Part shown: positions 1,248 to 35,676 of the stretch, one piece after another
Layout of the letters: every line of letters begins with the position of its first letter
Position numbering within the stretch: the first letter of the stretch is position 1
From: an uncultured Clostridia bacterium
GTDB taxonomy: Bacteria > Bacillota > Clostridia > Christensenellales > Borkfalkiaceae
Direction of reading: 5' to 3'
DNA: 64,000 nucleotides
NCBI GenBank assembly: GCA_947625595.1
Contig: CANQOX010000001.1
Coordinates: forward strand, 2,442 to 66,441
The notes under the pieces: generated by a model
What the model was told of the DNA's origin: nothing
Databases searched by the model: none
The model's input: only the letters and a program-made list of their open reading frames with translations
Program-made: the position numbers and the translations under genes

Positions 1248-1248
1248 T

Positions 1249-5449: not shown

Positions 5450-5479
5450 AAATTTAGCTCCTTGTATGGTTTCACAGAT

Positions 5480-6547: not shown

Positions 6548-7165
6548 TCAGTTCTTCTCCTTGTCAGACAGCACTTGTCTGTTTTTCACGATGTAATTGA
6601 CGCCCGAGACGACGGTGAGGACGGTCGCGAGCAGAAGGAGCGCAAAGCCGACCGCGGCCACATAGGGCGCCGCCGCAAGGTACCCCGCCGAGCCGTTCAG
6701 AAAGGGCATGACGGCGAGCAAAACGGCGATAGAGACGTCCTGAACGGTCGTCTTGATCTTGCCGAGTTTGTCGGCCGCGAGGACCAAGCCCCGCTCCACA
6801 GCGAGGAGACGGAAGCCGCTCACGATGAGTTCCCGCGCCATAATGAGCGCGACGCACACGCCCGCGAGGACGATCTCATATCCGTACACGTCGGCGGTAA
6901 AGCAGAACGCCGCGGGACGGGTCAGAAGGAGAATGAGCGCGGTCGAGACGAGGACTTTGTCGGCGATGGGGTCGAGAAATTTTCCCATGTTGGTGACGAG
7001 GTCATACTTTCTCGCGATGTAGCCGTCCAAAAAGTCCGTGCAGGCGGCGAGGACAAAGACGATCGCCGCGACGAGTTCATGATAGGGAAATTCGACATAG
7101 AAGAGAATGACGAAGATCGGGATCATGCAGATCCTTGTGAGTGTGATTTTGTTGGGTAAATTCAT
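6548..7165 (-). CDS. pgsA: CDP-diacylglycerol--glycerol-3-phosphate 3-phosphatidyltransferase
   Basis: CDP-alcohol phosphatidyltransferase motif DFLDGYIARKYDLVTNMGKFLDPIADK. Multi-TM, 205 aa. It abuts cinA with no gap. Confidence 0.93.
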   Translation of the reverse strand: MNLPNKITLTRICMIPIFVILFYVEFPYHELVAAIVFVLAACTDFLDGYIARKYDLVTNMGKFLDPIADKVLVSTALILLLTRPAAFCFTADVYGYEIVLAGVCVALIMARELIVSGFRLLAVERGLVLAADKLGKIKTTVQDVSIAVLLAVMPFLNGSAGYLAAAPYVAAVGFALLLLATVLTVVSGVNYIVKNRQVLSDKEKN

Positions 7166-8482
7166 TTATTCCTCCACGGTGTGACCGAACAGGTCGTAAG
7201 TCTCGGCGCGGTCGATAGCGACGGCGTAGCGTTTGCCCTCCTCCGCCGCGGGAGCGGTGAAGAAGACACAGCCGTCGATCTCAAACGCCTGAAAGAAGGC
7301 CCTTCCCACAAAACAGCCCCTGTCGAAGTCGATCCCGTCGCAGACGACGGAGAGCGTCTTCCCGACATAGCCTTCGAGCTTTGCGGCAGAGATCTCTGCC
7401 TGCCGCTCATAGAGTTCCCTCTGCCAACGCTTTCTCGTCGGATACGGGACCTGTCCTTTGAGCTTGTAGGCGGGCGTATCCTCTTCCCTCGAATAGACGA
7501 AGAAGCCGCAGTTCTCAAACTGTGCCTCCCCGAGAAAGGAGAGAAGGGCCCTGTGCTCCTCCTCCGTCTCGGTGGGAAAGCCCGCGATGAACGTCGTGCG
7601 GAGGGCGATCCCCCCGATCTCCCGCCGAAGTTTCTGAAAGAGGGCGAGGTATTCCTCCCCGCTTCCCCGCCGCCCCATGAGTTTGAGGACCCTCTTCTCG
7701 CTGTGCTGGAGGGGAATGTCGAGGTATTTGATAATTTTCGGATTTGTCTTTATTTCCCGAATGAGTTCGTCCGTGATCGCCTCGGGATAGCAGTACAAAA
7801 GGCGGATATGGGCGATGTTCGGGAGGGCGGAGAGCGCTTTGAGGAGCGCGACAAGGCGGTTTTCTCCCCCATCTTCCCCGTAGCGGGTGGTGTCCTGCGC
7901 GACGAGGACGAGCTCGTCCGTCTCGCCGAGGGCGGCCGCCTCCTCCACGAGTTCCTCCATGGGATAGGAGACGTATTTTCCCCTGATCTTCGGGATCAGG
8001 CAGTAGGTGCAGTGGTTGAAACAGCCGTCGGCGATCTTGAGATACTTGAGATGCGGCATGGTGGAGACAAAGCGGTCGGGCCGCGTGCCGTCCCCCGTTC
8101 CGACGGCGTTGATCCTCTGTCCCTCGCGGTAGGAGCGTTCGAGCGCGGGAAAGAGCTCCGAGTAGTCCTTGACGCCGAGGAAAACATCTGCCTCGGAGAG
8201 CGCGGGAAAGAGTTCGCCGATGAATTTCTCGGGAAGACAGCCCGTGACGACGATCTTCTCGAGGTTCCCCTCCCTGTACCTGTTTCCCTCGAATACGGCG
8301 GAGAGGGATTCCTCCCGCGCGCTGTTGAGGAAGGCGCAGGTGTTGACGATGAGGACCTGCGCTCTTGAAAGGTCGTCGGTGATCTCACAGCCGTGGCGGA
8401 CGATCTCGCCGAGCAGTCTCTCGCCGTCCACGCGGTTCTTATCACAGCCGAGCGAGATCATGCCGAAGGTCTTTTTCAGCAT
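7166..8482 (-). CDS. rimO: Ribosomal protein S12 methylthiotransferase RimO (MiaB-family radical SAM enzyme)
   Basis: N-terminal UPF0004 cysteines (SLGCDKN...NTCAF), radical-SAM CFNHCTYC and a C-terminal TRAM-like domain. The start overlaps the ftsK stop (TGATG), suggesting translational coupling. Confidence 0.88.
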   Translation of the reverse strand: MLKKTFGMISLGCDKNRVDGERLLGEIVRHGCEITDDLSRAQVLIVNTCAFLNSAREESLSAVFEGNRYREGNLEKIVVTGCLPEKFIGELFPALSEADVFLGVKDYSELFPALERSYREGQRINAVGTGDGTRPDRFVSTMPHLKYLKIADGCFNHCTYCLIPKIRGKYVSYPMEELVEEAAALGETDELVLVAQDTTRYGEDGGENRLVALLKALSALPNIAHIRLLYCYPEAITDELIREIKTNPKIIKYLDIPLQHSEKRVLKLMGRRGSGEEYLALFQKLRREIGGIALRTTFIAGFPTETEEEHRALLSFLGEAQFENCGFFVYSREEDTPAYKLKGQVPYPTRKRWQRELYERQAEISAAKLEGYVGKTLSVVCDGIDFDRGCFVGRAFFQAFEIDGCVFFTAPAAEEGKRYAVAIDRAETYDLFGHTVEE

Positions 8483-11400
8483 CAGTCGAGCCCTCCGAAC
8501 CTGCTCTCGAATTCCTCCTTCGTGAGGAGCACGGTGCGGGCTTTGGAGCCCTCAAAGGCCGAGATGAAACCCTGCGATTCCATCCATTCGATGATCTTGC
8601 CCGCATGGTTGTAGCCGATGCCGAGACTGCGCTGAATGAGCGAAATGGAGGCCTGTCCGCGCTTGACGACGACGCCGAGGGCCCTGATGTAGGTCTCGCT
8701 GACCTCTCCCCCGTCTCCGTCGTCTCCGCCGCCGCCCTTGCCCGCCTCGGGCTTGTCAATAAATTCGGCGACAGATTCGTCGAAGTACGTCTCGTTGTTC
8801 TCGCGGATATAGTTGATGACCCTCTGCCGCTCGGAGGCGCTGATGAAGGCGCCCTGCGCCCGCCTCGGCTTGCCCGTCGTCTTGATGAGCATGTCGCCGT
8901 AGCCGAGCAGTTTCTCCGCGCCCGATTCGTCGAGCATGATGCGGGAGTTGAGATCGGAGTCCACGGAGAGGGAAATGCGCGTCGGCAGGTTGCTCTTGAT
9001 GACGCCCGTGATGACGGTGGCGTCGGGGCGCTGGGTCGCGAGCACGAGGTGAATGCCCGCCGCCCTCGCCTTCTGCGCAAGGCGCTGGATGCGCTCCTCC
9101 ACTTCCTTCTTCGCCGTCATCATGAGGTCGGAGAACTCGTCGACCACGACGACGATCTTGGGAAGGCGTTCCTCATCGCCCGAGAGGTTCTGGTTGTACT
9201 CGTCGATCTTGGAGACGGCGACGCCCGAGCGGGTCTTTTCGTTGAAGAGCGTATATCTGCGCTCCATCTCGTTGACGGCCCATGTGAGGGCGGTGACCGC
9301 CTTGGGCGCGGAAGTGATGATCTCGTTGATCATGAGGTGCGGAATGCCCTCATAGAGCGTGAACTCGGACTGTTTGGGGTCGATGAGAATGAGGCGGAGC
9401 TCCTCGGGCGAATACTTGAAGAGCATCGAGATGAGCATGGAGTGCATCGCGATGGATTTGCCCGAGCCCGTCATGCCCGCGACGAGAATGTGGGTCATCT
9501 CGGTCACGTTGCCGCAGACGGGCCTTCCCTCGACGTCCTGCCCGAGGGCAAAGAGGAGCGCGTCGGGGCTGTCCTTCCTGAATTCCTCGGACTCGAGAAT
9601 GGCTTTGAGGCCGACAGTGGAACGCTTTTCGTTGGGGACCTCCACGGAGATGCCGCGGACCTCGGGATTGGCGTACATGTTGACGCCCTTCACCTGAAGA
9701 TAGACGGCAAGTTCCTCGTCATAGCGGGTGACATTGCTGATGGTGCCGTTCTCGGGCATGGCGAGGTCGTACCGCGTGACGGAAGCCCCCGCCTTGACGC
9801 TGATGATGTGCGTCTCGATCTTGTAGCGGCGGAGCGTGTCGAGGATAATGCCCGAATTGCGCCCCACTTCCTCATTGGAGAGGGTGGGCCTGTCCTCGTA
9901 TGTATTCAGAAGGTCGACGCTCGGACGCTTGTACTTGGCCCAAACGTGCTTTTTCTTCTTCGGAACCTCCTTGCGGCGGGGCTCGGCGGGCGCGGGAGGC
10001 ACGGGTGCACTTGCGGGAGGCTCGGGCGCGTCGATGGGCGCGTCGTCGTCGAAGAGGTCGGCATTGCTCCCCCTTCCCGCGTCAAAGACGCGGCTCTCGG
10101 GCAATCCGTCGTCCGCGGGCGTCTCGGGCTCCACAGGCGGGAGGTCTCTTCTGCCGCGCGGGAAAATGTCGTCCGCGGGCGTCTCGGGTTCCACGGGAGG
10201 AAGATCCCTCCTGCCGCGCGGGAAAATGTCGTCCGCGGGCGGTTCAGGCTCCACGGGAGGAAGGTCTCTCCTGCCGCGGGGGAAAATGTCGTCCGCGGGC
10301 GGTTCAGGCTCCACAGGAGGAAGGTCCCTTCTGCCGCGGGGGAAAATGTCGTCCGCGGGCGGTTCAGGCTCCACGGGAGGAAGGTCCCTTCTTCCGCGCG
10401 GGAAGATGTCGTCTGCGGGCGGTTCAGGCTCTGCGGGCGGCATGTCGCGCCTGCCCGTGAACGGGTCCGCGCTGAAGATCCCCATGTCGCGCGCCGACTC
10501 CGCACGGGAAGCGGTCGGGAAGGTGGGTTCAGGCGGGAGGTCTACGGGCTTGAATGTCCGCGGCTCGTCGAAAATGGGCTTCGGGCTGAAGTCATCGGCG
10601 GGTGCGCTCGGGGCGGGCGAAGGCGGGGTTACACTGCCCGCGACGTCATTTCTATAGAAATCCTGCCCCGAGGCGTCCTCAATGGGGGCGCGGTAAGAGG
10701 GCTTCTGCGGATAATTGTCGTCGCTGATGGGATAGGAATAGCCGCTCTGTTCCCCTGCGGCGGGCGCGTCGGTGACGCGGCGAGGCATGGAGGGACGCTC
10801 CTCGGCGGACTCCTCCGCGTAACGGTCGGAGTAGGTCTGCCCGTCCTGCGGGACGATGTTGGAGCGGCGGGGACGGGAATTGAAGCGGGAATCCTCGTCG
10901 AAGATGAGATTTTGCCGATAGCTCTCCGCGGGATCCTCCGAGAAGAGGATCGCACGGCTCCTCGCCTGCGCTTCACTGCGCGGTGCGCCATAGGGACTGC
11001 GCGCCGCTGTCTGCCCGTACGGCTCTGCGGGCGCGGGAGCCTGTCCGTACGACCCCGCGGGCGCGGTCGGCGCGGCCTCGGTCGGAGCGGCCGCGGCGGG
11101 AGGAGCGACGGGTGCGGGCGGAGGCGAATAGGTCCGCGGCGTCGGCGGGATGTCGTCGAAAGCGACGGGAGAAGCCGCAGTCTCCCGCTCCCCTTCCTCC
11201 TGCTCCTTCTTTTTCTTTGCGCCGGGAAGGAGGTAGACGCGGAGAGGCGTGCCGATGAGGGCAAACCAGACCGCGGCGAGAAGGAGGATCGCGAAGATCA
11301 CATAGGCCCCCGCCGACTGAAAGACGAAGCGGATGGGATAGCAGATGAGGCCGAGCAGAACGCCGCCGCCCGTGCCCTCCGCGACGCTGTTCCCCGCGGA

Positions 11401-11808
11401 ATAGAAGCAGTCGGCAAGGTATGCGCCGAAACTCCTTATCTCCGCGGTGGCGGGATCGATGAAAAAGCGCTCCGCCGTCGCCGTCTGGACGATGAAGAAG
11501 ATGCCCGTCATGAGCAGAATGATGCGGAGGGTCCAGCCCTTGGGCAAAAATCCCCTTCCCGCAATCAGACAGACCGCCCAGTAGACGAGCAGTACGAGCA
11601 AAAAGAAGATGTAAAAACCGCCAAAGCCGACAAAGAATGCCGCGATGGCTTTCCCGACGTCCCCGAAGAGCACGGGGCCCGTTGCCGTGATGAGCAGAAG
11701 AAGCCCGCCGAAGAGGAGAAAGCTCATTCCGAGCGTCTCATGCGTGGCTACCTTTGCCTTTTTCTTTTTATCCTGTTTGTCCTCGCTTCCGCGACCGACT
11801 CCGTTCAC
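8482..11808 (-). CDS. ftsK: DNA translocase FtsK/SpoIIIE
   Basis: 1108 aa. N-terminal TM helices, a long Pro/Glu-rich linker, and a motor domain with Walker A VAGMTGSGKS and Walker B VVVVDEFSDLMM. The gamma winged helix reads RGQASISLIQRSLGIGYNHAGKIIEWME. GTG start with GGAGG upstream. Confidence 0.95.
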   Translation of the reverse strand: MNGVGRGSEDKQDKKKKAKVATHETLGMSFLLFGGLLLLITATGPVLFGDVGKAIAAFFVGFGGFYIFFLLVLLVYWAVCLIAGRGFLPKGWTLRIILLMTGIFFIVQTATAERFFIDPATAEIRSFGAYLADCFYSAGNSVAEGTGGGVLLGLICYPIRFVFQSAGAYVIFAILLLAAVWFALIGTPLRVYLLPGAKKKKEQEEGERETAASPVAFDDIPPTPRTYSPPPAPVAPPAAAAPTEAAPTAPAGSYGQAPAPAEPYGQTAARSPYGAPRSEAQARSRAILFSEDPAESYRQNLIFDEDSRFNSRPRRSNIVPQDGQTYSDRYAEESAEERPSMPRRVTDAPAAGEQSGYSYPISDDNYPQKPSYRAPIEDASGQDFYRNDVAGSVTPPSPAPSAPADDFSPKPIFDEPRTFKPVDLPPEPTFPTASRAESARDMGIFSADPFTGRRDMPPAEPEPPADDIFPRGRRDLPPVEPEPPADDIFPRGRRDLPPVEPEPPADDIFPRGRRDLPPVEPEPPADDIFPRGRRDLPPVEPETPADDIFPRGRRDLPPVEPETPADDGLPESRVFDAGRGSNADLFDDDAPIDAPEPPASAPVPPAPAEPRRKEVPKKKKHVWAKYKRPSVDLLNTYEDRPTLSNEEVGRNSGIILDTLRRYKIETHIISVKAGASVTRYDLAMPENGTISNVTRYDEELAVYLQVKGVNMYANPEVRGISVEVPNEKRSTVGLKAILESEEFRKDSPDALLFALGQDVEGRPVCGNVTEMTHILVAGMTGSGKSIAMHSMLISMLFKYSPEELRLILIDPKQSEFTLYEGIPHLMINEIITSAPKAVTALTWAVNEMERRYTLFNEKTRSGVAVSKIDEYNQNLSGDEERLPKIVVVVDEFSDLMMTAKKEVEERIQRLAQKARAAGIHLVLATQRPDATVITGVIKSNLPTRISLSVDSDLNSRIMLDESGAEKLLGYGDMLIKTTGKPRRAQGAFISASERQRVINYIRENNETYFDESVAEFIDKPEAGKGGGGDDGDGGEVSETYIRALGVVVKRGQASISLIQRSLGIGYNHAGKIIEWMESQGFISAFEGSKARTVLLTKEEFESRFGGLD
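10100..10450 (-). repeat. Six in-frame 60-bp tandem repeats inside the ftsK linker
   Basis: gtc(c/t)gcgggc recurs at 10111, 10171, 10231, 10291, 10351 and 10411, an exact 60-nt period. The encoded unit is RRDLPPVEPE(P/T)PADDIFPRG, six copies. Confidence 0.95.
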
Positions 11809-11935: not shown

Positions 11936-11973
11936 AAAAAAGAAAAGCGCCCTCCCCGCGCAAAGGGAGGGCG
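11936..11973 (-). terminator. Intrinsic terminator downstream of the ABC-F gene
   Basis: 9-bp GC stem cgccctccc/gggagggcg (11948-11956 with 11965-11973), followed on the minus strand by cttttctttttt. Confidence 0.7.
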
Positions 11974-11984
11974 AATGCGATCCG

Positions 11985-13562
<1,578 letters not shown>

Positions 13563-13592: not shown

Positions 13593-15968
13593 TTAACTGT
13601 TTCGCTCAAATGTGTAGTCGCATTCCTCAGTGAGTTCACGGATGGTCGTCGCCATGTCCCCGTCGGCTCTGAAATGCTCGATCAAAACGAAAAATCTGAC
13701 CCCCCACACCGAATGGGCGGGCAGAGTGACGTTCTTTAGATTGATACAGCTCCTGAATGCGTTGGTCTCGATGGTCCTGATGTTGTCGGGGATCGCGATC
13801 GCGGCGAGCGCACTGCAATTTTTGAAACAGGAGTCGGGAATGACCTCGAGCGACGTGGGGATATTGACGTCGACAAGGCGCGAACAGCCCGCGAAGGCGC
13901 TCTTGCCAAGTTCTCTGACGGCGTCGGGAAGTTCGATCTCCGTGAGAGCCGTGCACCCCTCGAAGGCGCTCGCGCCGACGGAGATGACCGTCTCGGCGAT
14001 GCTGATCTCCTTGAGCAAGGTACAGCCCTTGAAGGCGCTGCTGCCGATCCTCATGATCCCGTCGGGAATGATGACGGACCCGACGACATTGTCCCGCTCC
14101 ACATAGGGCCGCGACACCTGCGTCACGCGGTAGCCATCGATCTCGTCGGGAATGACGAGCTCCTCCATGTCGTACTTGTAGACGCAGACGCTCGCCGTGC
14201 CGTCCTCGAGAACTTCGTAGTAAAAGCCGTCCACGGCCGTTTTCTGCGTCTGAACGGTGAAGAGCAGGCCGCAGAGGCTTGCAAAGATCGCAAAGGCCCA
14301 GATGCAGGCCGTCGCGTGATGTTCGGTCTCAAAATTGAGGCTGAAGACGGACACGACCCCGAGCGCGATGCCGAAGGCAAATTGCACCCAGAGCCAGTCT
14401 CCCATGGAGTGGCAGAACCAGCCGATCAGAATGCAGATCGCCCCGATGACGCCCTCGAAGACAAAACTGCTGAATAAAATTCGCCCGCCGCCCCCTCCGA
14501 TGAGGATGACGACCCCGTGCACGAGCAAGACGCCCGCAAGGACGCAGAGGACGATGAGATAGGCCGTGTACTCTGCCGTCTCGGCGGCGAGCGATGCGGC
14601 GAAGGGATAGCTGACGGCAAAGAGGCACCCCACGACGTCGAGGACGGTCAGAATGATGTTCAGGATCCGCATGCCCCGCTTCATTCCCTCGCCGAGCGAG
14701 GAGAAGAAGGAAGAAAAGCCGTCCTTGAAAGTTTCGGCGGCCGCAGAGCGCTTATGCTTCCGCGCCCGCTTGCGCTCGGCCTTCTCGGCCTCCTTCTGCC
14801 GCCTGCGCTCGGCCCGTTCGGCCTCCAGCCGACGCTTTTCCTCCGCCCTCTGCATGGCGAGCGCGTGGCGGCGTTCCCGCTCGGCCTGCCTGCCCTTCTC
14901 CTTTTCGGCCTGAAGTTGCAGGCGGTGCGCCTCGTTCTCCTCCCGCCTGAGGGCGGCCTCCTCCTTGATGCGCTTGACCTCTTCCCGCCGCGCGTCATCC
15001 TCCTCGCGGAGGTGCTTGAGGTCCAGAAACTTCCTGACATGGCTTTCAACGCGGCTGAAAGCGTCGGGGCTGTCGCACCCGATCCCCTCGATCGTGCCGT
15101 CGATCCCCGAGAGCCGCCCGATGGGATGCTTTGCGTCGTGGTAGAGAATGGTGAGCGCGCCGCGGCCCTTCTGCCCCTGCTTCATCATCTCCGTGAAGCG
15201 GGTGTATTCATTTTTGACCCAAGGGGTGTGAAGATATTCCTCGTTGAAGCAGACGACGACCATGCTCTCCGATTTCAGGAGCGCGTAGTAGATGAGGGCC
15301 TCATAGTCCTCGCCCGTGCGGCCCTTGGCGTCCACCTCGGAATAGAAAGGTCTGAGTTTTTTATCTTTGAGAAAGTAGTAGAGCTTCAGAGTTTCATGGC
15401 TCTCGGCCGTGAAGTCGTCGCCCGTCCCGTCCGTCCCCGTCTTGGAGACCTTGGTGCAGAGAAAGACGTCGTAATCAAGCCCCTCCCTTTGGAGGCGGTA
15501 AAATTCCTCGCGGATATGGTCGATCTCCCTGCCCTGCGCACGGTAGATCTCCCGCTGTTCGTCCGTGGCGAGTTCCACGGCTTTGAGATATTCCGCATCC
15601 TCCGTGAAGTATTTGGAGGAGATCTCGTGGCAGATGGGACGGACGCAGGGGGTCTCCCCGCTCCTGTCCACGATGAACTGCACGCGAAGTTTGGCCCGCG
15701 CAAGGCCGAAGTGGGCCTCAGGCTCCGCGGGGACCTGTTCGATCGCCTTTTCAAAGCACATCCGCGCCGCGTCGAAATCGCCGCGGTCGATGTCGTTCTC
15801 CCCGCTGACGAGCTGTGCCGTCACATACGCGGAGAGGCCGAAGGAGGGAAGCGTCCACGTCGTGCCGCAATACGCGCACTTGATGACGCCGCCCGCCGCG
15901 GCCCTGTGATCGAGGTTCGCCCCGCAACATCTGCATTGGATCGGTTTTGACCCTTCCTGCCTTTCCAT
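13593..15968 (-). CDS. Zinc-ribbon / TIR-domain / coiled-coil / 5-TM / BspA-type LRR membrane protein
   Basis: ORF 13593..16250, trimmed to the ATG at 15968 (MERQEGSKPIQCRCCGANL...CAYCGTTW). TIR-like block spans residues approx 165-290 (YDVFLC...MVVVCFNEEYLHTPWVKNEYTRF). A Lys/Arg/Glu coiled coil covers residues 320-410. I count five hydrophobic helices in 434-572. C-terminal LRR_5-type repeats read IPDGIMRIGSSAFKGCTLLKEISI..., about 6 copies. Confidence 0.8.
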   Translation of the reverse strand: MERQEGSKPIQCRCCGANLDHRAAAGGVIKCAYCGTTWTLPSFGLSAYVTAQLVSGENDIDRGDFDAARMCFEKAIEQVPAEPEAHFGLARAKLRVQFIVDRSGETPCVRPICHEISSKYFTEDAEYLKAVELATDEQREIYRAQGREIDHIREEFYRLQREGLDYDVFLCTKVSKTGTDGTGDDFTAESHETLKLYYFLKDKKLRPFYSEVDAKGRTGEDYEALIYYALLKSESMVVVCFNEEYLHTPWVKNEYTRFTEMMKQGQKGRGALTILYHDAKHPIGRLSGIDGTIEGIGCDSPDAFSRVESHVRKFLDLKHLREEDDARREEVKRIKEEAALRREENEAHRLQLQAEKEKGRQAERERRHALAMQRAEEKRRLEAERAERRRQKEAEKAERKRARKHKRSAAAETFKDGFSSFFSSLGEGMKRGMRILNIILTVLDVVGCLFAVSYPFAASLAAETAEYTAYLIVLCVLAGVLLVHGVVILIGGGGGRILFSSFVFEGVIGAICILIGWFCHSMGDWLWVQFAFGIALGVVSVFSLNFETEHHATACIWAFAIFASLCGLLFTVQTQKTAVDGFYYEVLEDGTASVCVYKYDMEELVIPDEIDGYRVTQVSRPYVERDNVVGSVIIPDGIMRIGSSAFKGCTLLKEISIAETVISVGASAFEGCTALTEIELPDAVRELGKSAFAGCSRLVDVNIPTSLEVIPDSCFKNCSALAAIAIPDNIRTIETNAFRSCINLKNVTLPAHSVWGVRFFVLIEHFRADGDMATTIRELTEECDYTFERNS

Positions 15969-15975
15969 ACGGTAA

Positions 15976-16004
15976 ATTATATCATACTTTTGCCGTTTTA
16001 ACAA
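15976..16004 (-). promoter_or_regulatory. Putative promoter of the TIR gene; geometry suggests a leaderless mRNA
   Basis: Minus strand reads TTGTTA-N17-TGaTATAAT, then 7 nt (ttaccgt), then the ATG at 15968. No SD is present. Confidence 0.45.
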
Positions 16005-16041
16005 ATAAAACGCGGGACAAAAAGAAATTTTCTCAAAACAC

Positions 16042-16070
16042 TTGCCTAAAATCTCGCGATATGATATAAT
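16042..16070 (+). promoter_or_regulatory. Putative promoter of the TM1266-like regulator gene
   Basis: TTGCCT-N17-TGaTATAAT (extended -10). It is divergent from the TIR promoter. Confidence 0.5.
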
Positions 16071-16106
16071 CGCTGTGCCTGAACGGAAAGAGCATTCTGA
16101 CCGCAA

Positions 16107-16182
16107 AGGAGGAAACCCCAATGACCGACGCGCCCTGTTTTGCGGCGTATTTCCTCCTGCCGTTCGGACGGGAGGTTTTTTT
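16107..16182 (+). promoter_or_regulatory. Leader with mutually exclusive pairings; a terminator-like hairpin sequesters the SD
   Basis: aggaggaaa (16107-16115) is a perfect complement of tttcctcct (16150-16158). The latter overlaps the 5' arm of the hairpin cctgccgt-tcgg-acgggagg (16156-16175). The 3' arm of that hairpin contains the SD GGAGG and is followed by T7, then the ATG at 16183. Confidence 0.4.
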
Positions 16183-16431
16183 ATGGAAGAAAAACGCATC
16201 GCGGTACTCTCGATCGTCGTCGAAAAGCGGGAACAGGCGGAGATCCTCAACCGCTACCTGTCGGAGTATGCGGAATATGTCGTCGGAAGAATGGGGATAC
16301 CTTACAGAGAGAAACATGTGTCCATTCTGAGCGTCGTACTCGACGCCCCCTCCTCCGCCGTCAATGCCCTGACGGGAAAGATCGGCCAGCTCGACGGCGT
16401 GAGTGCGAAGACGTTATTCAGCAAATACTGA
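16183..16431 (+). CDS. TM1266-family small ACT-like regulator (iron-only hydrogenase system regulator type)
   Basis: ORF 16042..16431, trimmed to MEEKRIAVLSIVVEKREQAEILNRYLSEYAEYVVGRMGIPYREKHVSILSVVLDAPSSAVNALTGKIGQLDGVSAKTLFSKY. This matches my memory of that family. SD GGGAGG lies 7 nt upstream. Confidence 0.65.
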   Translation: MEEKRIAVLSIVVEKREQAEILNRYLSEYAEYVVGRMGIPYREKHVSILSVVLDAPSSAVNALTGKIGQLDGVSAKTLFSKY

Positions 16432-24723: not shown

Positions 24724-26259
24724 ATGAAGAAAAAGTTGGTTTTTATTCTGACAGCGATCGTGCTGTGCCTCTGCTTTGTCTTTTCCGCTTGCGGCGAGGC
24801 GGGCGGCAAGGACAAGGGAGACGATGCGTCCGACGATACTTATTACACCGTCACTTTCGACAGCCAAGGCGGGAGCGCGGTCGACAGCCAAAAAGTTTTT
24901 GCAGGCAATCCCGCCGTTCTCCCCTCTTCCCCCACGCGGAGCGACGACATCTTCCTCGGTTGGTTCAGGTCGGCGAGCGAAAGCGCCGCGCAGTGGAACT
25001 TTTCGAGCGACCGCGTCAACGAAAACGTCACCCTGTACGCGCATTGGGCGGTGAACACAGAGGACCCGACGGCAAGCGTCACTTTCGAGCGCAATGCGGC
25101 GGGCACGGGCTTTATCGTCACGGGCGCGGGACAGGAGGCGAAGATCGTCATTCCCGAGACCCATGACAATTTGCCCGTCGTGGAGATCGGCGAGAGCGCA
25201 TTTGCCTACTCGCGGCACAAATCAGACATTACTTCCGTCACCATTCCCGATTCGGTCACGAAGATCGGCTTGAACGCTTTCTATAATCAAGCCGCCCTCG
25301 AGACCGTGAACATCGGAACAGGCAGTAAACTCGAAACTGTTGAAAACAACGCCTTTTCGGGCAACAGCGCGCTGAAGGGATTCTATCTCCCCGCGGGCGC
25401 GACAGAGCTTGGCGACAGCGTCTTCAATAACTGCGGCGCACTCGACAGCTTTACCGTCGCACATGGGAATACGGCCTATTCGGGCGAGGGGAACAATCTG
25501 ATAGACCTTGCCTCTCATACCATCCTTCGCGGCACGAACAACAGCAAAGTTCCCTCTTCCGTCACGGGGATCGGTGTCGCCGCGTTTCGCAGAGCCAACC
25601 GCATCACCGAGCTCTATCTTCCCCGTTCTGTGAAAACTATCGACAAATACGCCTTCGCGGACAGCACGCTCACGACGATCAGATACGAAGGGAGCAAGAC
25701 GGAATGGGGCGAAGTCCAGAAGGGAACGATGTGGGATCTGCACTGCACGATCGAAGTTGAATACAACGCCTCCGACGAGGCGGCAAACATCCTCGTCGCG
25801 TACTTCTCGGCGACGGGACATACCGAGACGATCGCGCGGTACATCGCCGAACTCACAGGCGGTACAAAATATGAGATCGTGCCCGAAATTCCGTACACGG
25901 ACGCCGATCTGAACTACGGAAGCAGTTCCTCGCGCACTTCCGCCGAGGACAGGGACCCCTCCGCCCGCCCCGAAATCAGCGGGAGCGTCGAAAACATGGA
26001 CAGCTTCGACGTCATCTTTCTCGGCTACCCCATTTGGTTCGGAAGTGCACCGAAGATCATCTATACCTTCCTCGAGAGCTATAATTTTTCGGGAAAGACA
26101 ATTATCCCCTTCTGCACGTCGGCGAGCAGTTCCATGGGATCGAGCGCGTCTGATCTTCACGGTCTCACAGACGGCGCAACATGGCAGAGCGGAATGCGCT
26201 TCGCGGCAAGTTCCACGCAAAGCGACGTCGAAAGCTGGCTCGACGGGTTGAACAATTGA
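24724..26259 (+). CDS. Lipoprotein: Listeria-Bacteroides repeat + BspA-type LRR + C-terminal flavodoxin domain
   Basis: Lipobox VFSAC. Flg_new-like YTVTFDSQGGSAVDSQ...FLGWF...VTLYAHW. LRR_5 repeats IPDSVTKIGLNAFYN.... The C-terminal 150 aa (ILVAYFSATGHTETIARYIA...FLGYPIWFGSAPKIIYTFLESYNFSGKTIIPFCTSASS) are paralogous to 21067..21543. Confidence 0.85.
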   Translation: MKKKLVFILTAIVLCLCFVFSACGEAGGKDKGDDASDDTYYTVTFDSQGGSAVDSQKVFAGNPAVLPSSPTRSDDIFLGWFRSASESAAQWNFSSDRVNENVTLYAHWAVNTEDPTASVTFERNAAGTGFIVTGAGQEAKIVIPETHDNLPVVEIGESAFAYSRHKSDITSVTIPDSVTKIGLNAFYNQAALETVNIGTGSKLETVENNAFSGNSALKGFYLPAGATELGDSVFNNCGALDSFTVAHGNTAYSGEGNNLIDLASHTILRGTNNSKVPSSVTGIGVAAFRRANRITELYLPRSVKTIDKYAFADSTLTTIRYEGSKTEWGEVQKGTMWDLHCTIEVEYNASDEAANILVAYFSATGHTETIARYIAELTGGTKYEIVPEIPYTDADLNYGSSSSRTSAEDRDPSARPEISGSVENMDSFDVIFLGYPIWFGSAPKIIYTFLESYNFSGKTIIPFCTSASSSMGSSASDLHGLTDGATWQSGMRFAASSTQSDVESWLDGLNN

Positions 26260-29235: not shown

Positions 29236-32200
29236 TCAACCTGCGACAAAGTTGAAGTTGGAAACGGTTGCAAAGTCGTCTTTTGTAGCACTGGAATAAA
29301 TCATTGAAGCAATGTAAAGCGTATCTCCTGCTTGCACAGAAATTGCTTGCTCCGTTCCAGAGCCAGTTGAAGCAGAGAACTTCCTTTGATATGCATATGC
29401 AGAATTCGGATCCAGGTTAAGAGTAACGCACAAGCAATCATTTGTATCATACGAATTACTATATTGGCACGACCAATCAAAGGTGAATGTCCCTGACACT
29501 TTGAAAGTAATTTTAATATATGCTTTCGCAGTCTTGCTCGCATCAATGTGATAACTTCCGTCGTCCCGCAAAATCCACTTTTCACTCCCAGAGTTGTTTG
29601 TGATCTCTATCAAATAAGGCGTGGTAGACCAACCAGCGAAGATCTCCTTGTCGGCCTCAAGCGGAGCGGGAACATATGCCGTTTCGCAAGCCGCTTCCGT
29701 GAACCAACCTGTAAAGTATTGCTTCGGCTCGGAGGCAGTATCCTCGGGGGCTTCTTCGGTCAGGTCGGGAGTTGCGCCCTTCTTGTACCAAAGATCCTTA
29801 TTCTCTTCGGGGCCGTGGCCGTTGTAATTGAGGGTGAGTTTTGCCATGGTCTCGACCTTGCCATATACAGTGACCTCTGTGCCCTCGGGAATGAACAGGC
29901 CGTCCTCTCCGAGCGCGGAATCAGTGTATTCGGCCGAAGTGTACCAACCCTCGACATACTTGTGGGTGGCATCGTTCACGACGTCGGGAAGCGCTATGCC
30001 GATGTTCGTATTGACAGACATCTCCTCATGCGTGAGTTGTCCGTCCTCAATCACGAACTTCACGGTCGTCAAAGGCATGGTGGCGGTGTAGGTCTTGTCA
30101 TCGCCAGTCACAAGGGTGATCTCCCAGTACTCTGCGGGGTCATCACCGTCTTTCTCGAGGGTGACTGCAATGACATTGCCTTCCTTTGTCACATAGGTTC
30201 CCTGACGGCCTGCCCAAGAGACGCCGCCCTTGCCGTCGATGTCAAGATCTTCAGGCGTTTCGCCCTTGTTGCCCTTATAGAGCCCCTTGAAGTCATCGTA
30301 GACGGTCTTCCTCCAAACGATGTTAGAGATACGGGCAAGGTCATCACCGTTACCATTATCACCGCTATCCTTCGTATAGGTGAGAATAATGACATCTCCA
30401 GGCATAACTTCACAAGTAAGATTACCTTCTTTCCCAGGGTTATATCCACCCGTTGCCGCCAACAGTGTTGTTTCCGCCGAACCATCTGCGTGCTTCTGCA
30501 CAATCTTTAAGTAATCATAACGTTCACTTTCAGATTCAACGAACCAATGGAAAGAGTAAGTACCTTCAACAGCAAATAAGATTTCAAGTTTTGCCGTCGT
30601 GCTACCCTTATGATAATTGTTGGACTTCCAAACGCCTTCTTCCTGTACCCACTTGGTGTTCTCATTGGTCTCGTCAGGATAGTAGTTGACATCATCAAGC
30701 GTATCGCTCCACTTGGCATAGAGATCGGTCTCTTCGTTGATAACAAAATATGTATCAAACTTATCATCAGAACAATCTTCTGTCTTGTACCAACCAAGGA
30801 ACTGCTTCATTTCGACAATTGACGCAGGGTCACCTTTCCATGCAGAAGCACTCGTAACGGCTTCACCCTTGCCAACCACGAAATCGTAATCCTCCAGTGA
30901 GGGCACGTCCTCCCTGTTGTAATGAACATGCACAGTGACAGCTTCCTTAAAGTAGGCATAGAGCGTAACGCTCTCTGTCGTCGGCGTGAATATCCATTGC
31001 CTTTCATCATTCCTTTGGAGCATTTTGCTGAAATTTGATCCGCTCTTTTCCTCATACCACCCAATAAACGCATAACCATCCACGGTCGGCTCTTCGATCA
31101 CCGTCTCAATATTCAGGTTAGCTTGCATATCGGCGGGGAATTCGCCGCGGTCAATGTCACCGAAATCAAAGATGATCGTTGCCATGGGCTTGGTCGCGGT
31201 ATACGTCTTTTCGCCCTTATTGAGCGTGACATAATAGAACGCACCGTCGTAGGTCATTGTCGCCGTGTAGGCTTGATTAGAGACAAGAAGATACGTCCCC
31301 ATCTTGCCCTCCGAGCCCCTCACGATGCCCGCGCCGTTTAAGGTGAATGCGCCAAGATCGACTGTGGAGTCTGTAGCCTTTGTATATCCACCCTCATAGC
31401 CGTCAACCTCAACCATCTTCGTGCCGTTGAAGCCCCAACTTCCAAGAACTTTATCGTTCTGCTTCACGATCACGTTCTCTGAATGGTATGCTTCGTCTGC
31501 AGCAACGGCTTCGCCAGACATATCTTCGAATGTCACGCCAAAATACACTTTATCCTGGTAAACGAGAATATTGACCACTTCATCAGAGATAGTAAGTGTA
31601 ATGACACGGCCTTTTCCACCTTCCCAATACGAACCTTTTAGGCTGACTTGATCCATATCTGCTGGTACGAGTACTGCAAGCGTTCCAAATTTACCTGTCA
31701 AGCCCAAAACAATTATCTTTTTCGAAAGCATCATATATGCGTCATTCGAGCTGCTTGTACTATAGGCAAATTTTAGAGCACGTACATCATCGCCCGCATC
31801 GTCTTCGGAAGCAAACGTGACCTTCATTGCGAATGTATCAAGTGGCCAATCCAAGCCATTCACAATTGCCGCCTGTCCTTCTGAATCAATCTTATAGGAG
31901 CCGTTTTTTAATGTTCCGTTCATCTGCGCGCCATTTGAATTGCTACCATTGAAGTAGTACTCAACATATGTTCCGCTGTATGCGGGGGGATCGCCCCACT
32001 TCGGGTAGAGATCAATCGCCGTCGTGTCGGATCCAAGCGTGACGGTTGTGCTGCCATCTTCCAACTTCTCGCCCCAAAGATTTTCAAGTCCAGAATCAGT
32101 GTACCACCCCTCGAACTTCTTCCCTTCCTTGGAGGGACGGACGATCGTGACGTCTTCGCCTTGGCCAAAGGTATCGATCGTGCCGTTTGCGCCAAGTGAG

Positions 32201-35200
32201 CCTTCGGGAAGGGTCGCGCCGTCTTCGAGATGAACGGTGATCGTGACCTTCTTGATCCACTTTGCATAAACGGTCAAGCCGTTCTCAGAAGGGACAAAAG
32301 TCCAATATTTATCTTCACCTTCAGGTTGCTCGTAATCGCATTCCTTCTCACAGAAGGCATTCATAAACCAACCGCGGAAGAGATAAACGCCGTCTGGATC
32401 AACAAGATTAGGAAGTTTAACTTCAATATTTTTGTTGAATGACGTATCTGTAGACTTACCCGTCGGATCAACCACGAGACCGTAGTTGAAGTTAAGGCTC
32501 ACCATCACCTTCTCGAGATCGTACGTCGTGCCGCTGATCGTGACTTCGTAGTAGACAGTCACGTCATCCTCGACAATGTATGCGTCGATCTTATCGTCGG
32601 CATCCGTCGCCTTGTAGGTTCCCAGCTTGGACCCGAGCATAAGATTTCCTGCACCGTCGAGCTCGAGGTCATCGGCCTCTTCTTTGGTATATGTGCCAAA
32701 GTGCTCGTCGAGATCGACAGTACTGCTATCGTCCGCAATAGATGCCCCCTTAGAGGCAACTTTGAGCAAAATTTCTCCATTGGACGTCTTTACGACAACC
32801 GACTTGGAAGACTTAATCTCATTGATCTCCAGCGGAACACCGAACGCATTCGTGATCGTCACATCGGAATAGATGAAGGTGTCATAGATGAAAATATTCT
32901 TCTCTCCGTCTTTTGTAGCGATCTTGACAAATTGAGCGTACCAACTTCTTGAAGTGTCATGTTTTGAACTTGCATTTACGCCAAACTTAACACTTATCGT
33001 GTTGGTGGACGCAAACTTGCTCAAAACATACATGTCGCTCCACAAATACTGCAGTTTGGAATTGTTATAATTATATGCAAGTACGCCGCTGGCGTCGTCA
33101 TAGAAGAAGTAATTGGTATTTCCACTTGAATCCATCCAGGTGATGATCTGCGTTGCCTCATCATAATCAACGATCGTACCTGTCTTGGAACCTGAAATTT
33201 TACCGTCTTCACTGATCGTAATATTAGATGCACTTGAGCCATAGCCTGCATTATACACTTCGGAGCCCTTGTATTCCCCGACATAAGGAGCATCTACCCA
33301 TTCTGAATAGAAATCCATCTTATCATTCACATCGGAGAAAGTGCTGTCAGGGTAGTCGGCCAACATCGTCTTGGTTTCGCCGTCTTTAATATACCACCCT
33401 CTGAAGACCATGCCATCTTTGACGCTGAGGTCGAACTTTTTGTTCAAGGTCTCGAGCATGTTGTCGCCCGCGCCGACTATGAGAGTTTCAGTCGTCGCCT
33501 CTTCGGGCTCTGCATGCACGGTAATGGTGATCGCCTTGACCCACTTCGCATAGAGCGTCATGCTCTCCGTCGGCTTGAAGGGAACGGGAACGGGCGTCGT
33601 GCAAGCATCGTCCGTGAACCAACCGCGGAAGAGGAATTTGCCTTCCGCGTCTTTGGGCTCGGCAGGGAGTACCATTTCAACATTCTTATAGCCTTCTTTT
33701 TTGTCCTCTGCCGTCCCGTGCTCTTTCATATCAAAGGTGACAGTGACTTTGGCTTCGGCAAAGGTCACAGATTTTGCGGCCTTGTCGACCGTGACGGTGT
33801 AGGCCTTCTTCCCGCCAGATTCCTCCATGATCGCGTCCAAGGTGTCGCCCGCAACGATGTAAGCGCCGTCGACGTTGGTGTCGTCCTTGACCGCCTTGAT
33901 CTTGCCCGTACCAGAGATCGTGACCGTGCCGAACGTGTCATTATTGTATTCGCCCTCGAATCCGTCGAGCGCGACCATTTTCTCGCCGTCAAAGCCGACA
34001 CTGGACAACACTGTGTCGCCCTTCTTCACATAGAGTTGAGGCGCGTTGTAGCATTTGTCTGCAACAATATCTTCGCCCGCCATGTCTTTGAACGACACGC
34101 CGAAGGTGACGACGTTGTTTGCGACATAGAGCGTAATCGTCTTTTGGCCTTCGGCCTCATAGGTATAGGAGAGTGCATAAGCATAGCTCACCGCGCTCTC
34201 GCCCCAAACGGAGCCAACTGCGCCGCTCGTATATTGACCAGAGGGTATAAGAAGATTACAGTCAGTGAAATCACTGCCTTCATCTGCCATGAAGATGAAG
34301 CCCGTGTCCATATCGACATAGCCCTTCGCAGTCTTTTTTGCGCCTGTGAAGGCATCATCAGCATCCCCTGCCGCCTTGCCCGTGAAGGTAACCTCTATCT
34401 CACCCGTCTCGGCGTTTATCATTTTGAAAACGATCTTGGTATTGTTTGAGAAGGGATAAGCCGTGCCGAGGCCGACGCCATTGGCGTCAAGCGTGAGAGA
34501 AGCGTCTGTCCAGGACATTCCGATTTTGATTGTTCCGTTGAAGGTGTCATTGAGGTCCACATTGAAGCTGTGATAGGTCTTTCCGTCGTAGGGGGCGACC
34601 AATTTGTCAATGTCGACCGTGACCGTGCCATACTCCGAGGTGTAGACTTTGCTGCCTTTCTCGTTGTAGGTCGCAGGGGTCGTTTCAAGGCTCCAAGGGG
34701 CTTGGTCGGAAAGTTTGGGAACGGCCTTCTCTTCCTTCTCCGTGCAGCCGCTGATCGTGCACGAATGAACGGCGGTCGCGCCTTCCTCTTCGGTGGGCGC
34801 CTTGTCGTCTTTCCATGACCATTCACCCCAAGTGTGATTGCCGACCTTATCAGTGGTCACTTCGACGGTGCCGTACTCGGACTTGTAGACGTCCGTGCCC
34901 GTCGCCGTGTGCGTCGCGGGCGTGGAAGCCGTAGCATCCTTCGTCCAGACGGTGGCGTCGCTCAGAGCGGGAACGTCGGTCTTCGTCTCTTTCCCGTTGT
35001 CATTGGCCGTGCAGGACCGCTCCGCAGTGCCCTTCTCCGTGAGGGTCGGGTCCTTGGTGAGCGTCCATGCGCCCCAAGTGTGCTCGGTCGTCTTGTCGGT
35101 GGTCACTTCGACGGTGCCGTATTCGGACTTGTAGACATCCGTGCCCGTCGCCGTGTGCGTCGCGGGCGTGGAAGCCGTAGCATCCTTCGTCCAGACGGTG

Positions 35201-35676
35201 GCGTCGCTTAAAGCGGGAACGTCGGTCTTCGTCTCCTTCCCGTTGTCATTGGCCGTGCAGGACCGCTCCGCAGTGCCCTTCTCCGTGAGGGTCGGGTCCT
35301 TGGTGAGCGTCCATGCGCCCCAAGTGTGCTCGGTCGTCTTGTCGGTAGTCACTTCGACGGTGCCGTATTCGGACTTGTAGACGTCCGTGCCCGTCGCCGT
35401 GTGCGTCGCGGGCGTGGAAGCCGTAGCGTCCTTCGTCCAGACGGTCGCGTCGCTCAGAGCGGGAACGTCGTTTTTGACTTCCTTCTCGCCGTCATTCGCC
35501 GTACAGGACCGCTCTGCCGTACCCGTCTCCGTGAGCGTCGGATCCTTGGTGAGGGTCCATGCGCCGAAGGAGTGGTCGTGAGGGGTCTCCGTCTCGCCGC
35601 AGGCGACCGCCCCGCAGAGCGCGGCGACCAACATGCAGAGCAAAACGATGAGAGTTACTGTTCTCCTTTTTTTCAT
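29236..35676 (-). CDS. Giant surface lipoprotein (2146 aa) with N-terminal 82-aa repeats, multiple Listeria-Bacteroides (Flg_new) repeats and unknown beta-rich modules
   Basis: Lipobox CGAVAC. Repeated FRGWF/FRGWY...LYAKW units. Three super-repeats of an unnamed module, e.g. VVTFGVSFKDMAGEDIVAD versus VYFGVTFEDMSGEAVAAD. Two C-terminal approx 130-aa modules (..FHWFVESESERYDYL.. and ..FTFDWSCQYSNSYDTNDCL..). Confidence 0.9.
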   Translation of the reverse strand: MKKRRTVTLIVLLCMLVAALCGAVACGETETPHDHSFGAWTLTKDPTLTETGTAERSCTANDGEKEVKNDVPALSDATVWTKDATASTPATHTATGTDVYKSEYGTVEVTTDKTTEHTWGAWTLTKDPTLTEKGTAERSCTANDNGKETKTDVPALSDATVWTKDATASTPATHTATGTDVYKSEYGTVEVTTDKTTEHTWGAWTLTKDPTLTEKGTAERSCTANDNGKETKTDVPALSDATVWTKDATASTPATHTATGTDVYKSEYGTVEVTTDKVGNHTWGEWSWKDDKAPTEEEGATAVHSCTISGCTEKEEKAVPKLSDQAPWSLETTPATYNEKGSKVYTSEYGTVTVDIDKLVAPYDGKTYHSFNVDLNDTFNGTIKIGMSWTDASLTLDANGVGLGTAYPFSNNTKIVFKMINAETGEIEVTFTGKAAGDADDAFTGAKKTAKGYVDMDTGFIFMADEGSDFTDCNLLIPSGQYTSGAVGSVWGESAVSYAYALSYTYEAEGQKTITLYVANNVVTFGVSFKDMAGEDIVADKCYNAPQLYVKKGDTVLSSVGFDGEKMVALDGFEGEYNNDTFGTVTISGTGKIKAVKDDTNVDGAYIVAGDTLDAIMEESGGKKAYTVTVDKAAKSVTFAEAKVTVTFDMKEHGTAEDKKEGYKNVEMVLPAEPKDAEGKFLFRGWFTDDACTTPVPVPFKPTESMTLYAKWVKAITITVHAEPEEATTETLIVGAGDNMLETLNKKFDLSVKDGMVFRGWYIKDGETKTMLADYPDSTFSDVNDKMDFYSEWVDAPYVGEYKGSEVYNAGYGSSASNITISEDGKISGSKTGTIVDYDEATQIITWMDSSGNTNYFFYDDASGVLAYNYNNSKLQYLWSDMYVLSKFASTNTISVKFGVNASSKHDTSRSWYAQFVKIATKDGEKNIFIYDTFIYSDVTITNAFGVPLEINEIKSSKSVVVKTSNGEILLKVASKGASIADDSSTVDLDEHFGTYTKEEADDLELDGAGNLMLGSKLGTYKATDADDKIDAYIVEDDVTVYYEVTISGTTYDLEKVMVSLNFNYGLVVDPTGKSTDTSFNKNIEVKLPNLVDPDGVYLFRGWFMNAFCEKECDYEQPEGEDKYWTFVPSENGLTVYAKWIKKVTITVHLEDGATLPEGSLGANGTIDTFGQGEDVTIVRPSKEGKKFEGWYTDSGLENLWGEKLEDGSTTVTLGSDTTAIDLYPKWGDPPAYSGTYVEYYFNGSNSNGAQMNGTLKNGSYKIDSEGQAAIVNGLDWPLDTFAMKVTFASEDDAGDDVRALKFAYSTSSSNDAYMMLSKKIIVLGLTGKFGTLAVLVPADMDQVSLKGSYWEGGKGRVITLTISDEVVNILVYQDKVYFGVTFEDMSGEAVAADEAYHSENVIVKQNDKVLGSWGFNGTKMVEVDGYEGGYTKATDSTVDLGAFTLNGAGIVRGSEGKMGTYLLVSNQAYTATMTYDGAFYYVTLNKGEKTYTATKPMATIIFDFGDIDRGEFPADMQANLNIETVIEEPTVDGYAFIGWYEEKSGSNFSKMLQRNDERQWIFTPTTESVTLYAYFKEAVTVHVHYNREDVPSLEDYDFVVGKGEAVTSASAWKGDPASIVEMKQFLGWYKTEDCSDDKFDTYFVINEETDLYAKWSDTLDDVNYYPDETNENTKWVQEEGVWKSNNYHKGSTTAKLEILFAVEGTYSFHWFVESESERYDYLKIVQKHADGSAETTLLAATGGYNPGKEGNLTCEVMPGDVIILTYTKDSGDNGNGDDLARISNIVWRKTVYDDFKGLYKGNKGETPEDLDIDGKGGVSWAGRQGTYVTKEGNVIAVTLEKDGDDPAEYWEITLVTGDDKTYTATMPLTTVKFVIEDGQLTHEEMSVNTNIGIALPDVVNDATHKYVEGWYTSAEYTDSALGEDGLFIPEGTEVTVYGKVETMAKLTLNYNGHGPEENKDLWYKKGATPDLTEEAPEDTASEPKQYFTGWFTEAACETAYVPAPLEADKEIFAGWSTTPYLIEITNNSGSEKWILRDDGSYHIDASKTAKAYIKITFKVSGTFTFDWSCQYSNSYDTNDCLCVTLNLDPNSAYAYQRKFSASTGSGTEQAISVQAGDTLYIASMIYSSATKDDFATVSNFNFVAG
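34603..35574 (-). repeat. 246-bp in-frame tandem repeats (3 near-identical + 1 degenerate) at the 5' end of the 2146-aa gene
   Basis: The unit is H(S/T)(F/W)GAWTLTKDPTLTE.GTAERSCTAND...YKSEYGTVEVTTDKTTE, 82 aa. Copies cover residues 35-116, 117-198 and 199-280, with a divergent copy at about 281-358. Shadow ORFs 34895.., 35141.. and 35387.. are near-identical, spaced 246 nt apart. Confidence 0.95.

Follow-up and report, generated by a model that had tools for sequence, protein, structure and literature searches.

A 64,000-nt stretch of contig CANQOX010000001.1 (assembly GCA_947625595.1, positions 2,442 to 66,441, forward strand) from an uncultured Clostridia bacterium, referred to below as the window, contains a gene for a 791-aa protein in which an N-terminal head with a zinc ribbon, a TPR-like unit and a TIR domain is joined by a long charged helix to five membrane segments and a C-terminal leucine-rich repeat (LRR) domain of the BspA type. 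Our analysis revealed that this TIR-membrane-LRR gene is one sub-architecture of a modular, lineage-specific, multi-copy family, in which a constant head is combined with variable tails, rather than a stand-alone mimic of a Toll-like receptor (TLR), the layout to which it had been compared in the original prediction, made from the sequence alone. We regard it as a putative TIR sensor-effector of bacteria, whose head module is new and whose LRR is placed across the membrane in a way without precedent. The gene and its parts, in window coordinates and with the basis of each assignment where one applies, are the following (TM, transmembrane; AF2, AlphaFold2):

13593..15968, minus strand: full coding sequence, 791 aa plus stop, ATG at 15968 and TAA at 13593 (start codon as in orthologs)
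15849..15941, minus strand: zinc ribbon, residues ~10-40, with C12, C15, C31 and C34 (alignment, AF2 model)
15483..15833, minus strand: TPR-like helical unit 47-93, beta hairpin 96-113 and long helix 125-162
15069..15482, minus strand: TIR domain, residues ~163-300 (TIR_2 profile, fold, RUN1 alignment)
15207..15209, minus strand: codon of E254, the catalytic-Glu position in the WxxxE of helix alpha-C (RUN1 alignment)
14778..15062, minus strand: 95-residue charged helix (303-397), followed by the basic patch RKRARKHKR and an amphipathic segment
14250..14660, minus strand: five TM helices, ~437-459, 466-488, 497-519, 525-545 and 551-573 (hydropathy, AF2)
13596..14243, minus strand: C-terminal domain with a cap (DGFYYEVLEDG...), ~six BspA-type LRRs and a C-terminal cap (LRR_5, model)

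The family was delineated by searching the head (the first 330 residues) against representative clusters. With a threshold of E <= 1e-3 this returned 4,652 clusters, as opposed to 378 with E <= 1e-30, and the best 150 all exhibit E-values below 1e-63 and span the entire head; the head thus flags an unannotated family in abundant gut commensals, which comprises at least 150 clusters and probably up to 378. A survey that took a single genome from each species yielded 126 head loci. All 77 loci listed belong to uncultured Clostridia of the rabbit, mouse, sheep or human gut, which are annotated as Christensenellaceae, Christensenella, Candidatus Coproplasma or Pumilibacter muris, and among them the family is seen solely in gut Christensenellales-like Clostridia. 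Single genomes contain several copies (at least seven in CANRFD, six in CANQET and five in CANREU), with 40-50% identity between the heads of paralogs and with diverse tails. Among 166 proteins, the stalk is followed solely by membrane segments in 72, usually two or three per protein, and an LRR occurs without a membrane segment in 57; in 8, one TM segment precedes the LRR, and a few contain a TM2 domain, Sel1 repeats or large polytopic regions. The design with five TM segments and LRRs, whose recurrence in related genomes had been proposed as a check, is found in ~10 of the 166.

The tandem or adjacent arrangement of genes encoding LRRs or TIR heads was observed in 17 of the loci examined. 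At L004 (positions 1-6951, plus strand), a gene for a 3,005-aa protein with TIR_2 and LRR_5 domains lies upstream of P0020, in tandem with a 748-aa paralog.

In the head, a CxxC...CxxC ribbon had been predicted on C12/C15 and C31/C34; in an alignment of 52 sequences, these four cysteines show little or no variation. The region has a weak match to the MJ0042 CXXC family, and in the AF2 model, which has beta strands at residues 28-30 and 37-39, the cysteines are seated on short strands. For residues 1-330, the model was computed from the family alignment and has a predicted local distance difference test score (pLDDT) of 91.5 and a pTM of 0.87. Residues 60-92 weakly match TPR_11 and TPR_16, as well as designed TPR proteins in the PDB. 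The beta hairpin that follows carries a conserved QPICHE motif, in which P111, C113 and H114 are invariant, and the whole TPR-like/hairpin/helix region is modeled with pLDDT above 90. A regulatory role of this region is possible.

The TIR domain, which the original prediction had located at residues ~165-290, was identified both by its sequence and by its modeled fold. Pfam TIR_2 (PF13676) scores 27.3 bits in the whole protein, slightly below the curated cut-off of 28 bits, and 30.5 bits, above the cut-off, when residues 155-312 are scanned alone; all 26 relatives scanned match the same profile, with the best E-value of 1.5e-14. The AF2 model indicates the flavodoxin-like alpha/beta fold of TIR domains, and Foldseek matched the second half of the head model to the MyD88 TIR (target-normalised TM-score 0.68) as well as to TIR-STING, SARM1, TRAM and SPARTA TIRs (probability 1.00). 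The family profile also finds the TIR domain of the plant NADase RUN1, in which WCLDE(100)L pairs with W250-V-K-N-E254; in the entry for the RUN1 E100A mutant (7s2z), Ala occupies the column aligned to E254. W250 and E254 are invariant in 52 of the 52 aligned sequences, the motif WVKNEY is constant across relatives, and WxxxE is present in 166 of the fetched proteins. Because the invariant WVKNE aligns with E100 of RUN1, the assignment of E254 to the catalytic-Glu position, proposed from the sequence together with an alignment check of its conservation, is correct.

The C-terminal domain was likewise predicted correctly as about six BspA-type LRRs. LRR_5 (PF13306) covers residues 640-750 (113.4 bits, E 8.5e-33), and the full-length model reveals ~six 23-residue repeats with caps (pLDDT ~90), which form a right-handed solenoid, so that both the profile and the solenoid identify the BspA type. 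The Foldseek matches of this domain are TpLRR (6mlx, target-normalised TM-score 0.74), 4gt6, 4fs7, 4cp6 and 4oju. The nearest solved structures belong to secreted or surface proteins, namely TpLRR of T. pallidum, the F. prausnitzii surface protein 4gt6, PcpA of S. pneumoniae (4cp6) and LRR proteins of gut Bacteroides. NCBIfam has no family model for the protein and gave partial matches to LRR adhesins alone.

Residues 303-397 form a single helix in the full-length model, with 51% E/R/K and a length of ~14 nm if straight. A coiled coil of about 90 residues had been predicted for this stalk; we rejected a canonical coiled coil, since the best heptad register places hydrophobic residues at only 5 of 28 a/d positions. 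Salt-bridge patterns of the ER/K type are not enriched either (16 observed vs 16.5 in the shuffled sequence), and as both tests were negative we call the stalk merely a charged helix. The five hydrophobic segments predicted after a basic stretch were recovered as five hydropathy peaks, each of which is also a helix in the full-length AF2 model (425-459, 465-490, 496-522, 524-542 and 547-573, with loops of 5-8 residues), and the pattern is kept in the orthologs. A homologous module of five TM segments occurs in seven relatives (P0001-P0004, P0057, P0062 and P0086) with the shared motifs FAVSYPFA, ICILIGWF and WLWVxFAFG, and with DGFYYxxLEDG right after TM5. A homolog search with residues 420-600 alone yielded no match and missed even the 97%-identical P0001, which we ascribe to the hydrophobic query. 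Polar residues recur inside the bundle, acidic in TM1 (D446 here), His in TM2 and Glu in TM3, and their conservation across the subfamily may point to a function of the bundle beyond anchoring.

The evidence for the predicted topology, with the LRR outside the cell and the N-terminal head inside, is indirect and falls short of proof. Neither a signal peptide nor an N-terminal hydrophobic segment is present in the head, which would need cytoplasmic NAD+; the number of TM segments is odd, the flank preceding TM1 is strongly basic (11 K/R in 36 residues), and the flank following TM5 is acidic. Relatives agree with this orientation: 1, 3 or 5 TM segments precede the LRR in 19 of the 20 such proteins, including the single-pass P0129, P0153 and P0160 with LRR ectodomains of 2,000-2,800 aa, and the closest LRR structures are those of secreted or surface proteins. 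The order of charged helix, basic patch, TM segment and LRR also recurs in two relatives without TIR (P0050 and P0051), which consist of a ~170-residue E/R/K-rich helix, a basic patch, one TM segment and an extracellular region ending with LRR_5; therefore, the stalk-membrane-LRR design exists without the TIR head. In the original prediction the C-terminus had been placed outside by the positive-inside rule; the odd helix count and the basic flank on which this relied stand, and the evidence that does not fit is discussed below.

Comparison with a related locus (L009) revealed that the head and the tail have different histories. At the nucleotide level, the two are 99-100% identical in a stretch that begins upstream of the gene and reaches approximately residue 390 (window 14950-16300); identity is 58-89% in the membrane and LRR part, and 90-93% in the downstream gene, which encodes an ABC-F ATPase. 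Synonymous divergence (dS) amounts to 0.026 in the head, as opposed to 0.45-0.53 in the tail and 0.36 in the ABC-F gene; because of this difference we interpret the head with its upstream region as a recent recombination tract that ends within the charged stalk. The opposite mosaic is found in P0001, with 95-97% identity in the tail and 76-89% in the head. We considered and dropped a strain-to-strain swap of the membrane-LRR part as a cassette, as the dS of the tail is close to that of the ABC-F gene. At this similar dS, the ratio of nonsynonymous to synonymous divergence (dN/dS) is 0.37-0.41 in the tail and 0.03 in the adjacent ABC-F gene, and the nonsynonymous divergence of the tail is 15-20 times that of ABC-F. 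Its evolution is thus rapid, in the manner of surface or sensor domains.

The start of the gene and its transcription were analyzed together with the gene that follows it, for which the relevant features are:

15976..16004, minus strand: promoter-like site TTGTTA-17-TGaTATAAT, with the ATG 7 nt past the -10 hexamer
11985..13562, minus strand: ABC-F ATPase gene, 30 nt downstream of the TIR-LRR gene (two ABC_tran domains and ABC_tran_Xtn)
11948..11973, minus strand: terminator-like hairpin (10 pairs, 8 of them G-C) with a T run, directly after the ABC-F stop codon

The 791-aa reading frame is intact, and the orthologs P0001-P0004 (46-90% identity over 99-100% of the length) begin at the same Met, shortly before the first CxxC. 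A longer open reading frame (ORF) that extends to TTG at 16250 was rejected on the basis of the ortholog starts and the promoter-like site in the upstream stretch. The TATAAT-N7-ATG start, the 30-nt spacing to an ABC-F gene and the terminator after that gene were all described in the original prediction and are all present. The arrangement TGnTATAAT-N7-ATG makes a leaderless mRNA possible; it is also found in L009 and in a 61%-identical ortholog (L002/L010). L001 differs in having a 26-nt leader with a Shine-Dalgarno sequence, and most paralogs likewise have a Shine-Dalgarno sequence instead. The downstream gene was assigned to the ABC-F group by two ABC domains, an ABC_tran_Xtn linker and the lack of a membrane domain. 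A scan of the 30-nt gap revealed no terminator-like or promoter-like site, and the sole strong terminator-like site is the hairpin with its T run after ABC-F, which makes co-transcription of the two genes plausible. As for the proposed linkage to ABC-F, the adjacency is restricted to close orthologs: both genes occur side by side in four further genomes at the species level (L009, L010, L011 and L021, with ABC-F 89-98% identical), where the upstream neighbors vary (TM1266-like, VCA0040-like, Fe-ADH) and the synteny of FtsK is kept in one; however, the ABC-F gene is absent from beside L036 and L042, which have the same 5-TM-LRR architecture, and from beside all other paralogs. From this distribution we read the adjacency as local synteny and not as a functional module.

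A sister group is found in another type of genomic neighborhood. In species-level genomes numbering at least 10 (L041, L045, L046, L053, L054, L060, L066/L082, L074, L075 and L085, with a variant in L004/L077), a paralog of the TIR head lies in or beside a conserved cluster, at a variable position relative to it. The cluster encodes an SPFH protein (Band_7_1) that carries a double zinc ribbon, a single-TM protein of 142 aa, a Vps4-like AAA ATPase and two ~190-aa helical proteins, one of which weakly matches Snf7/ESCRT-III; a sequence search of the PDB with these two proteins gave just a non-significant match to CHMP2A. The combination of SPFH, Snf7-like and Vps4-like proteins recalls the membrane-stress operon pspA-ydjGHI of B. 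subtilis, links the sister group to the membrane and suggests a role in membrane stress or remodelling.

We propose that the protein is a single-chain sensor-effector, an explanation that we believe has about an even chance of being right as a whole. The analysis establishes the identities of the domains, the conservation of the catalytic motif, the five hydrophobic helices, the make-up of the family and the rapid evolution of the tail, whereas the topology, the enzymatic activity, the trigger of clustering and the biological role are inferred. On the cytoplasmic side, the zinc ribbon, the TPR-like unit and a putatively NADase-competent TIR domain would be connected by the charged helix to a compact five-helix bundle, with the BspA-type LRR outside. 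The head would serve as the constant effector or signal generator and the tail as the variable sensor or localiser, with a repertoire of soluble LRRs, LRRs preceded by 1, 3 or 5 TM segments, anchors of two or three segments, Sel1 repeats and polytopic regions. The receptor could be clustered when its LRR binds a (multivalent) ligand or when the envelope is disturbed, upon which the TIR domains would assemble and cleave NAD+, with the result being either depletion of NAD+ or a signal derived from ADP-ribose. TIR catalysis needs self-association, as established for SARM1 and for plant and bacterial TIRs, and therefore the most economical model would be one in which it depends on the tail how close the heads come to each other. 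Since no partner effector is conserved adjacent to the gene, NAD+ depletion or a diffusible product acting elsewhere is favored. The likely setting would be conflict, i.e. phage, competitors or an attack on the envelope. We speculate that the zinc ribbon and the TPR-like unit may gate the TIR domain, like the ARM domain in SARM1. A conserved enzyme-type head with a variable tail follows the pattern of single-chain sensor-effectors, and we infer that an extracellular LRR controls a cytoplasmic TIR. A polymorphic toxin was rejected, as the enzyme domain is N-terminal and constant and there is neither an immunity gene nor a secretion-system context.

A number of observations weigh against this explanation. 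The dN/dS values are below 1 throughout, so positive selection is not demonstrated. The gene lies among housekeeping genes (FtsK, ABC-F, a TM1266-like regulator and an ABC transporter), and no defence island was seen around the locus or the relatives examined. PADLOC searches (E up to 10), in which the complete protein, its head, its TIR segment and two relatives served as queries, returned only spurious matches to the charged helix, and head homologs were absent from the phage records, plasmids and IMG/VR viral contigs searched. The soluble relatives indicate that the LRR can work in the cytoplasm; because they pair it with the same head and no TM segment, the coupling of LRR and TIR needs no membrane. 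Regarding the topology, the loop between TM4 and TM5, predicted to be cytoplasmic, is acidic and not basic, P0088 has apparently 4 membrane segments before its LRR, and the bundle helices are the low-confidence part of the model (pLDDT below 50), since few sequences cover the membrane region. If the TM count or orientation were wrong on these grounds, the protein would be a membrane-tethered intracellular TIR-LRR sensor like the many paralogs that keep their LRR in the cytoplasm. We consider this quite improbable, given the five hydropathy peaks in all members of the subfamily, the strongly basic N-flank and the acidic flank after TM5, and the single-pass relatives, which must have their LRR outside.

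Even with the LRR outside, there might be no outside-in signal: the LRR could be a surface adhesin or envelope module and the bundle its anchor, with the head answering cues from inside the cell. We regard this as unlikely, though far from negligible. It would account for the constant heads being joined to plain anchors of two or three segments and to soluble LRRs, for the presence of the sister group in clusters that suggest membrane stress or remodelling, for the similarity of the LRR to adhesin-type surface proteins such as PcpA and TpLRR, and for the giant adhesin-like ectodomains of some relatives. However, the conserved polar residues and motifs of the 5-TM module exceed the needs of an anchor, and the LRR is the commonest non-membrane tail, which fits ligand sensing. 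The TIR domain could alternatively be a non-catalytic assembly or scaffold module that recruits partners, as in most animal TLRs and adaptors, and the best structural matches do include the scaffold TIRs of MyD88, MAL and TRAM; moreover, a Glu at the WxxxE position occurs also in the non-enzymatic TIRs of TLR1/2/6/10 (survey: PMC7075850). A scaffold role appears improbable to us nonetheless, because W250, E254, the BB-loop glycine G219, Y222 and E223 are invariant across 52 paralogs that are otherwise only 23-50% identical, the best alignment of the sequence profile is to RUN1, an NADase, no conserved partner gene containing a TIR domain was seen, and the bacterial TIRs characterised so far are enzymes (PMC11350192). 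Finally, the gene could form a two-gene module with ABC-F, e.g. to couple envelope sensing to translation control. The gap without terminator-like or promoter-like sites, the strong terminator after ABC-F and the retention of the pair in four genomes despite differing upstream neighbors would fit such a module, which we find most improbable in view of the strong, housekeeping-like purifying selection on ABC-F (dN/dS 0.03-0.09), the accompanying FtsK synteny and the unpaired relatives.

The single-chain sensor-effector that we prefer resembles several known systems in part. With animal TLRs it would share, given the predicted topology, an outer-side LRR and a cytoplasmic TIR in one chain, as well as a multi-copy repertoire with variable ectodomains, and induced proximity of TIR domains is the natural model of activation. 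However, the order is inverted (TIR N-terminal, LRR C-terminal, no signal peptide), there are five membrane segments (one in some paralogs) instead of the single TM segment of TLRs, the LRR is of the BspA/LRR_5 type and not a typical LRR with LRRNT/LRRCT caps, and the TIR domain has an enzyme-type WxxxE and is accompanied by a zinc ribbon, a TPR-like unit and a charged helix. The likeness is thus one of layout alone, the protein does not belong to the TLRs by architecture, and the similarity looks convergent rather than inherited. Plant TIR-NB-LRR proteins (RUN1, RPP1 and Roq1) provide the best sequence-profile match of the TIR domain, including the catalytic Glu, and have an N-terminal TIR followed by a C-terminal LRR, as do the 57 soluble paralogs; they differ in their NB-ARC/STAND ATPase and in the type of LRR, and the protein studied here is embedded in the membrane. 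Neither Pfam nor NCBIfam identified an NTPase domain between TIR and LRR, where the charged helix and the bundle are found instead, and we therefore do not assign the protein to the NLR, TIR-NB-LRR or TIR-STAND groups. SARM1 similarly has a helical-repeat unit before a catalytic TIR (fold match 6o0u), which suggests autoinhibition here too; in contrast to SARM1, the protein lacks a SAM oligomerisation domain, has one TPR-like unit together with a zinc ribbon in place of the ARM array, and possesses a membrane anchor and a predicted ectodomain.

The TIR with a catalytic Glu is the feature common to bacterial defence proteins such as ThsB of Thoeris and the AbTir-type NADases, from which our protein differs in giving no match to ThsB or any other PADLOC model and in having no ThsA-like partner, no defence island and a predicted extracytoplasmic LRR. 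The absence of a ThsB model match and of a neighboring ThsA effector (SIR2, or Macro/TM with SLOG) leads us to conclude that it is not Thoeris. BspA-type surface proteins share the LRR_5 repeat and its fold (target-normalised TM-score up to 0.74-0.76) and the cell-surface location predicted here; TpLRR, PcpA and the LRR proteins of gut Bacteroides and Faecalibacterium are, however, secreted or anchored by lipid or choline and lack a cytoplasmic enzyme domain. As far as is known, TIR systems of bacteria detect an infection within the cell. Among the single-gene TIR, TIR-TM and TIR-TPR systems of E. coli, some likewise have a membrane segment or TPR (PMC11350192), and the same 2024 experimental survey of TIRs in E. 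coli remarks that bacterial TIR systems seem to lack both the membrane feature and the LRR feature of TLRs. We found no description of a bacterial TIR-membrane-LRR protein in the literature searched, the coverage of which was limited.

Going further, we put forward as a tentative and rather doubtful proposal that gut Christensenellales-like Clostridia may carry germline transmembrane receptors of the innate-immune type, in which a surface LRR senses an extracellular agent and activates a catalytic TIR. If this were true, the agent could be a phage particle, the surface or toxin of a competitor, or a host molecule; the protein would be a convergent, enzyme-coupled counterpart of TLRs, and outside-in sensing would be documented for the first time in a TIR system of bacteria, with the cytoplasm covered by the soluble TIR-LRR paralogs. 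The family would fill in a missing layout, in which a surface LRR is coupled to a catalytic TIR, with numerous copies in a genome next to soluble TIR-LRR and TIR-membrane relatives, and it raises the questions of whether threats are detected before entry, how a TIR NADase is switched on across a membrane, and whether TLR-like and TIR-NB-LRR-like layouts have originated repeatedly.

Several other features of the window were observed. The FtsK gene (8482..11808, minus strand) contains a linker with ~six tandem copies of a 20-residue unit (PPVEPEPPADDIFPRGRRDL) at 9900-10500, and this copy region differs between the window and L009. Two other LRR_5-type ORFs without a TIR head, one of 2,550 aa (44595..52247, minus strand) and one of 511 aa (24724..26259, plus strand), show tblastn similarity to the LRR tail, with E-values down to 3e-19. 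The segment 30001-34000, located inside an ORF of 2,146 aa (29236..35676, minus strand), has a G+C content of 0.475-0.495, compared to 0.55-0.63 in the rest of the window.

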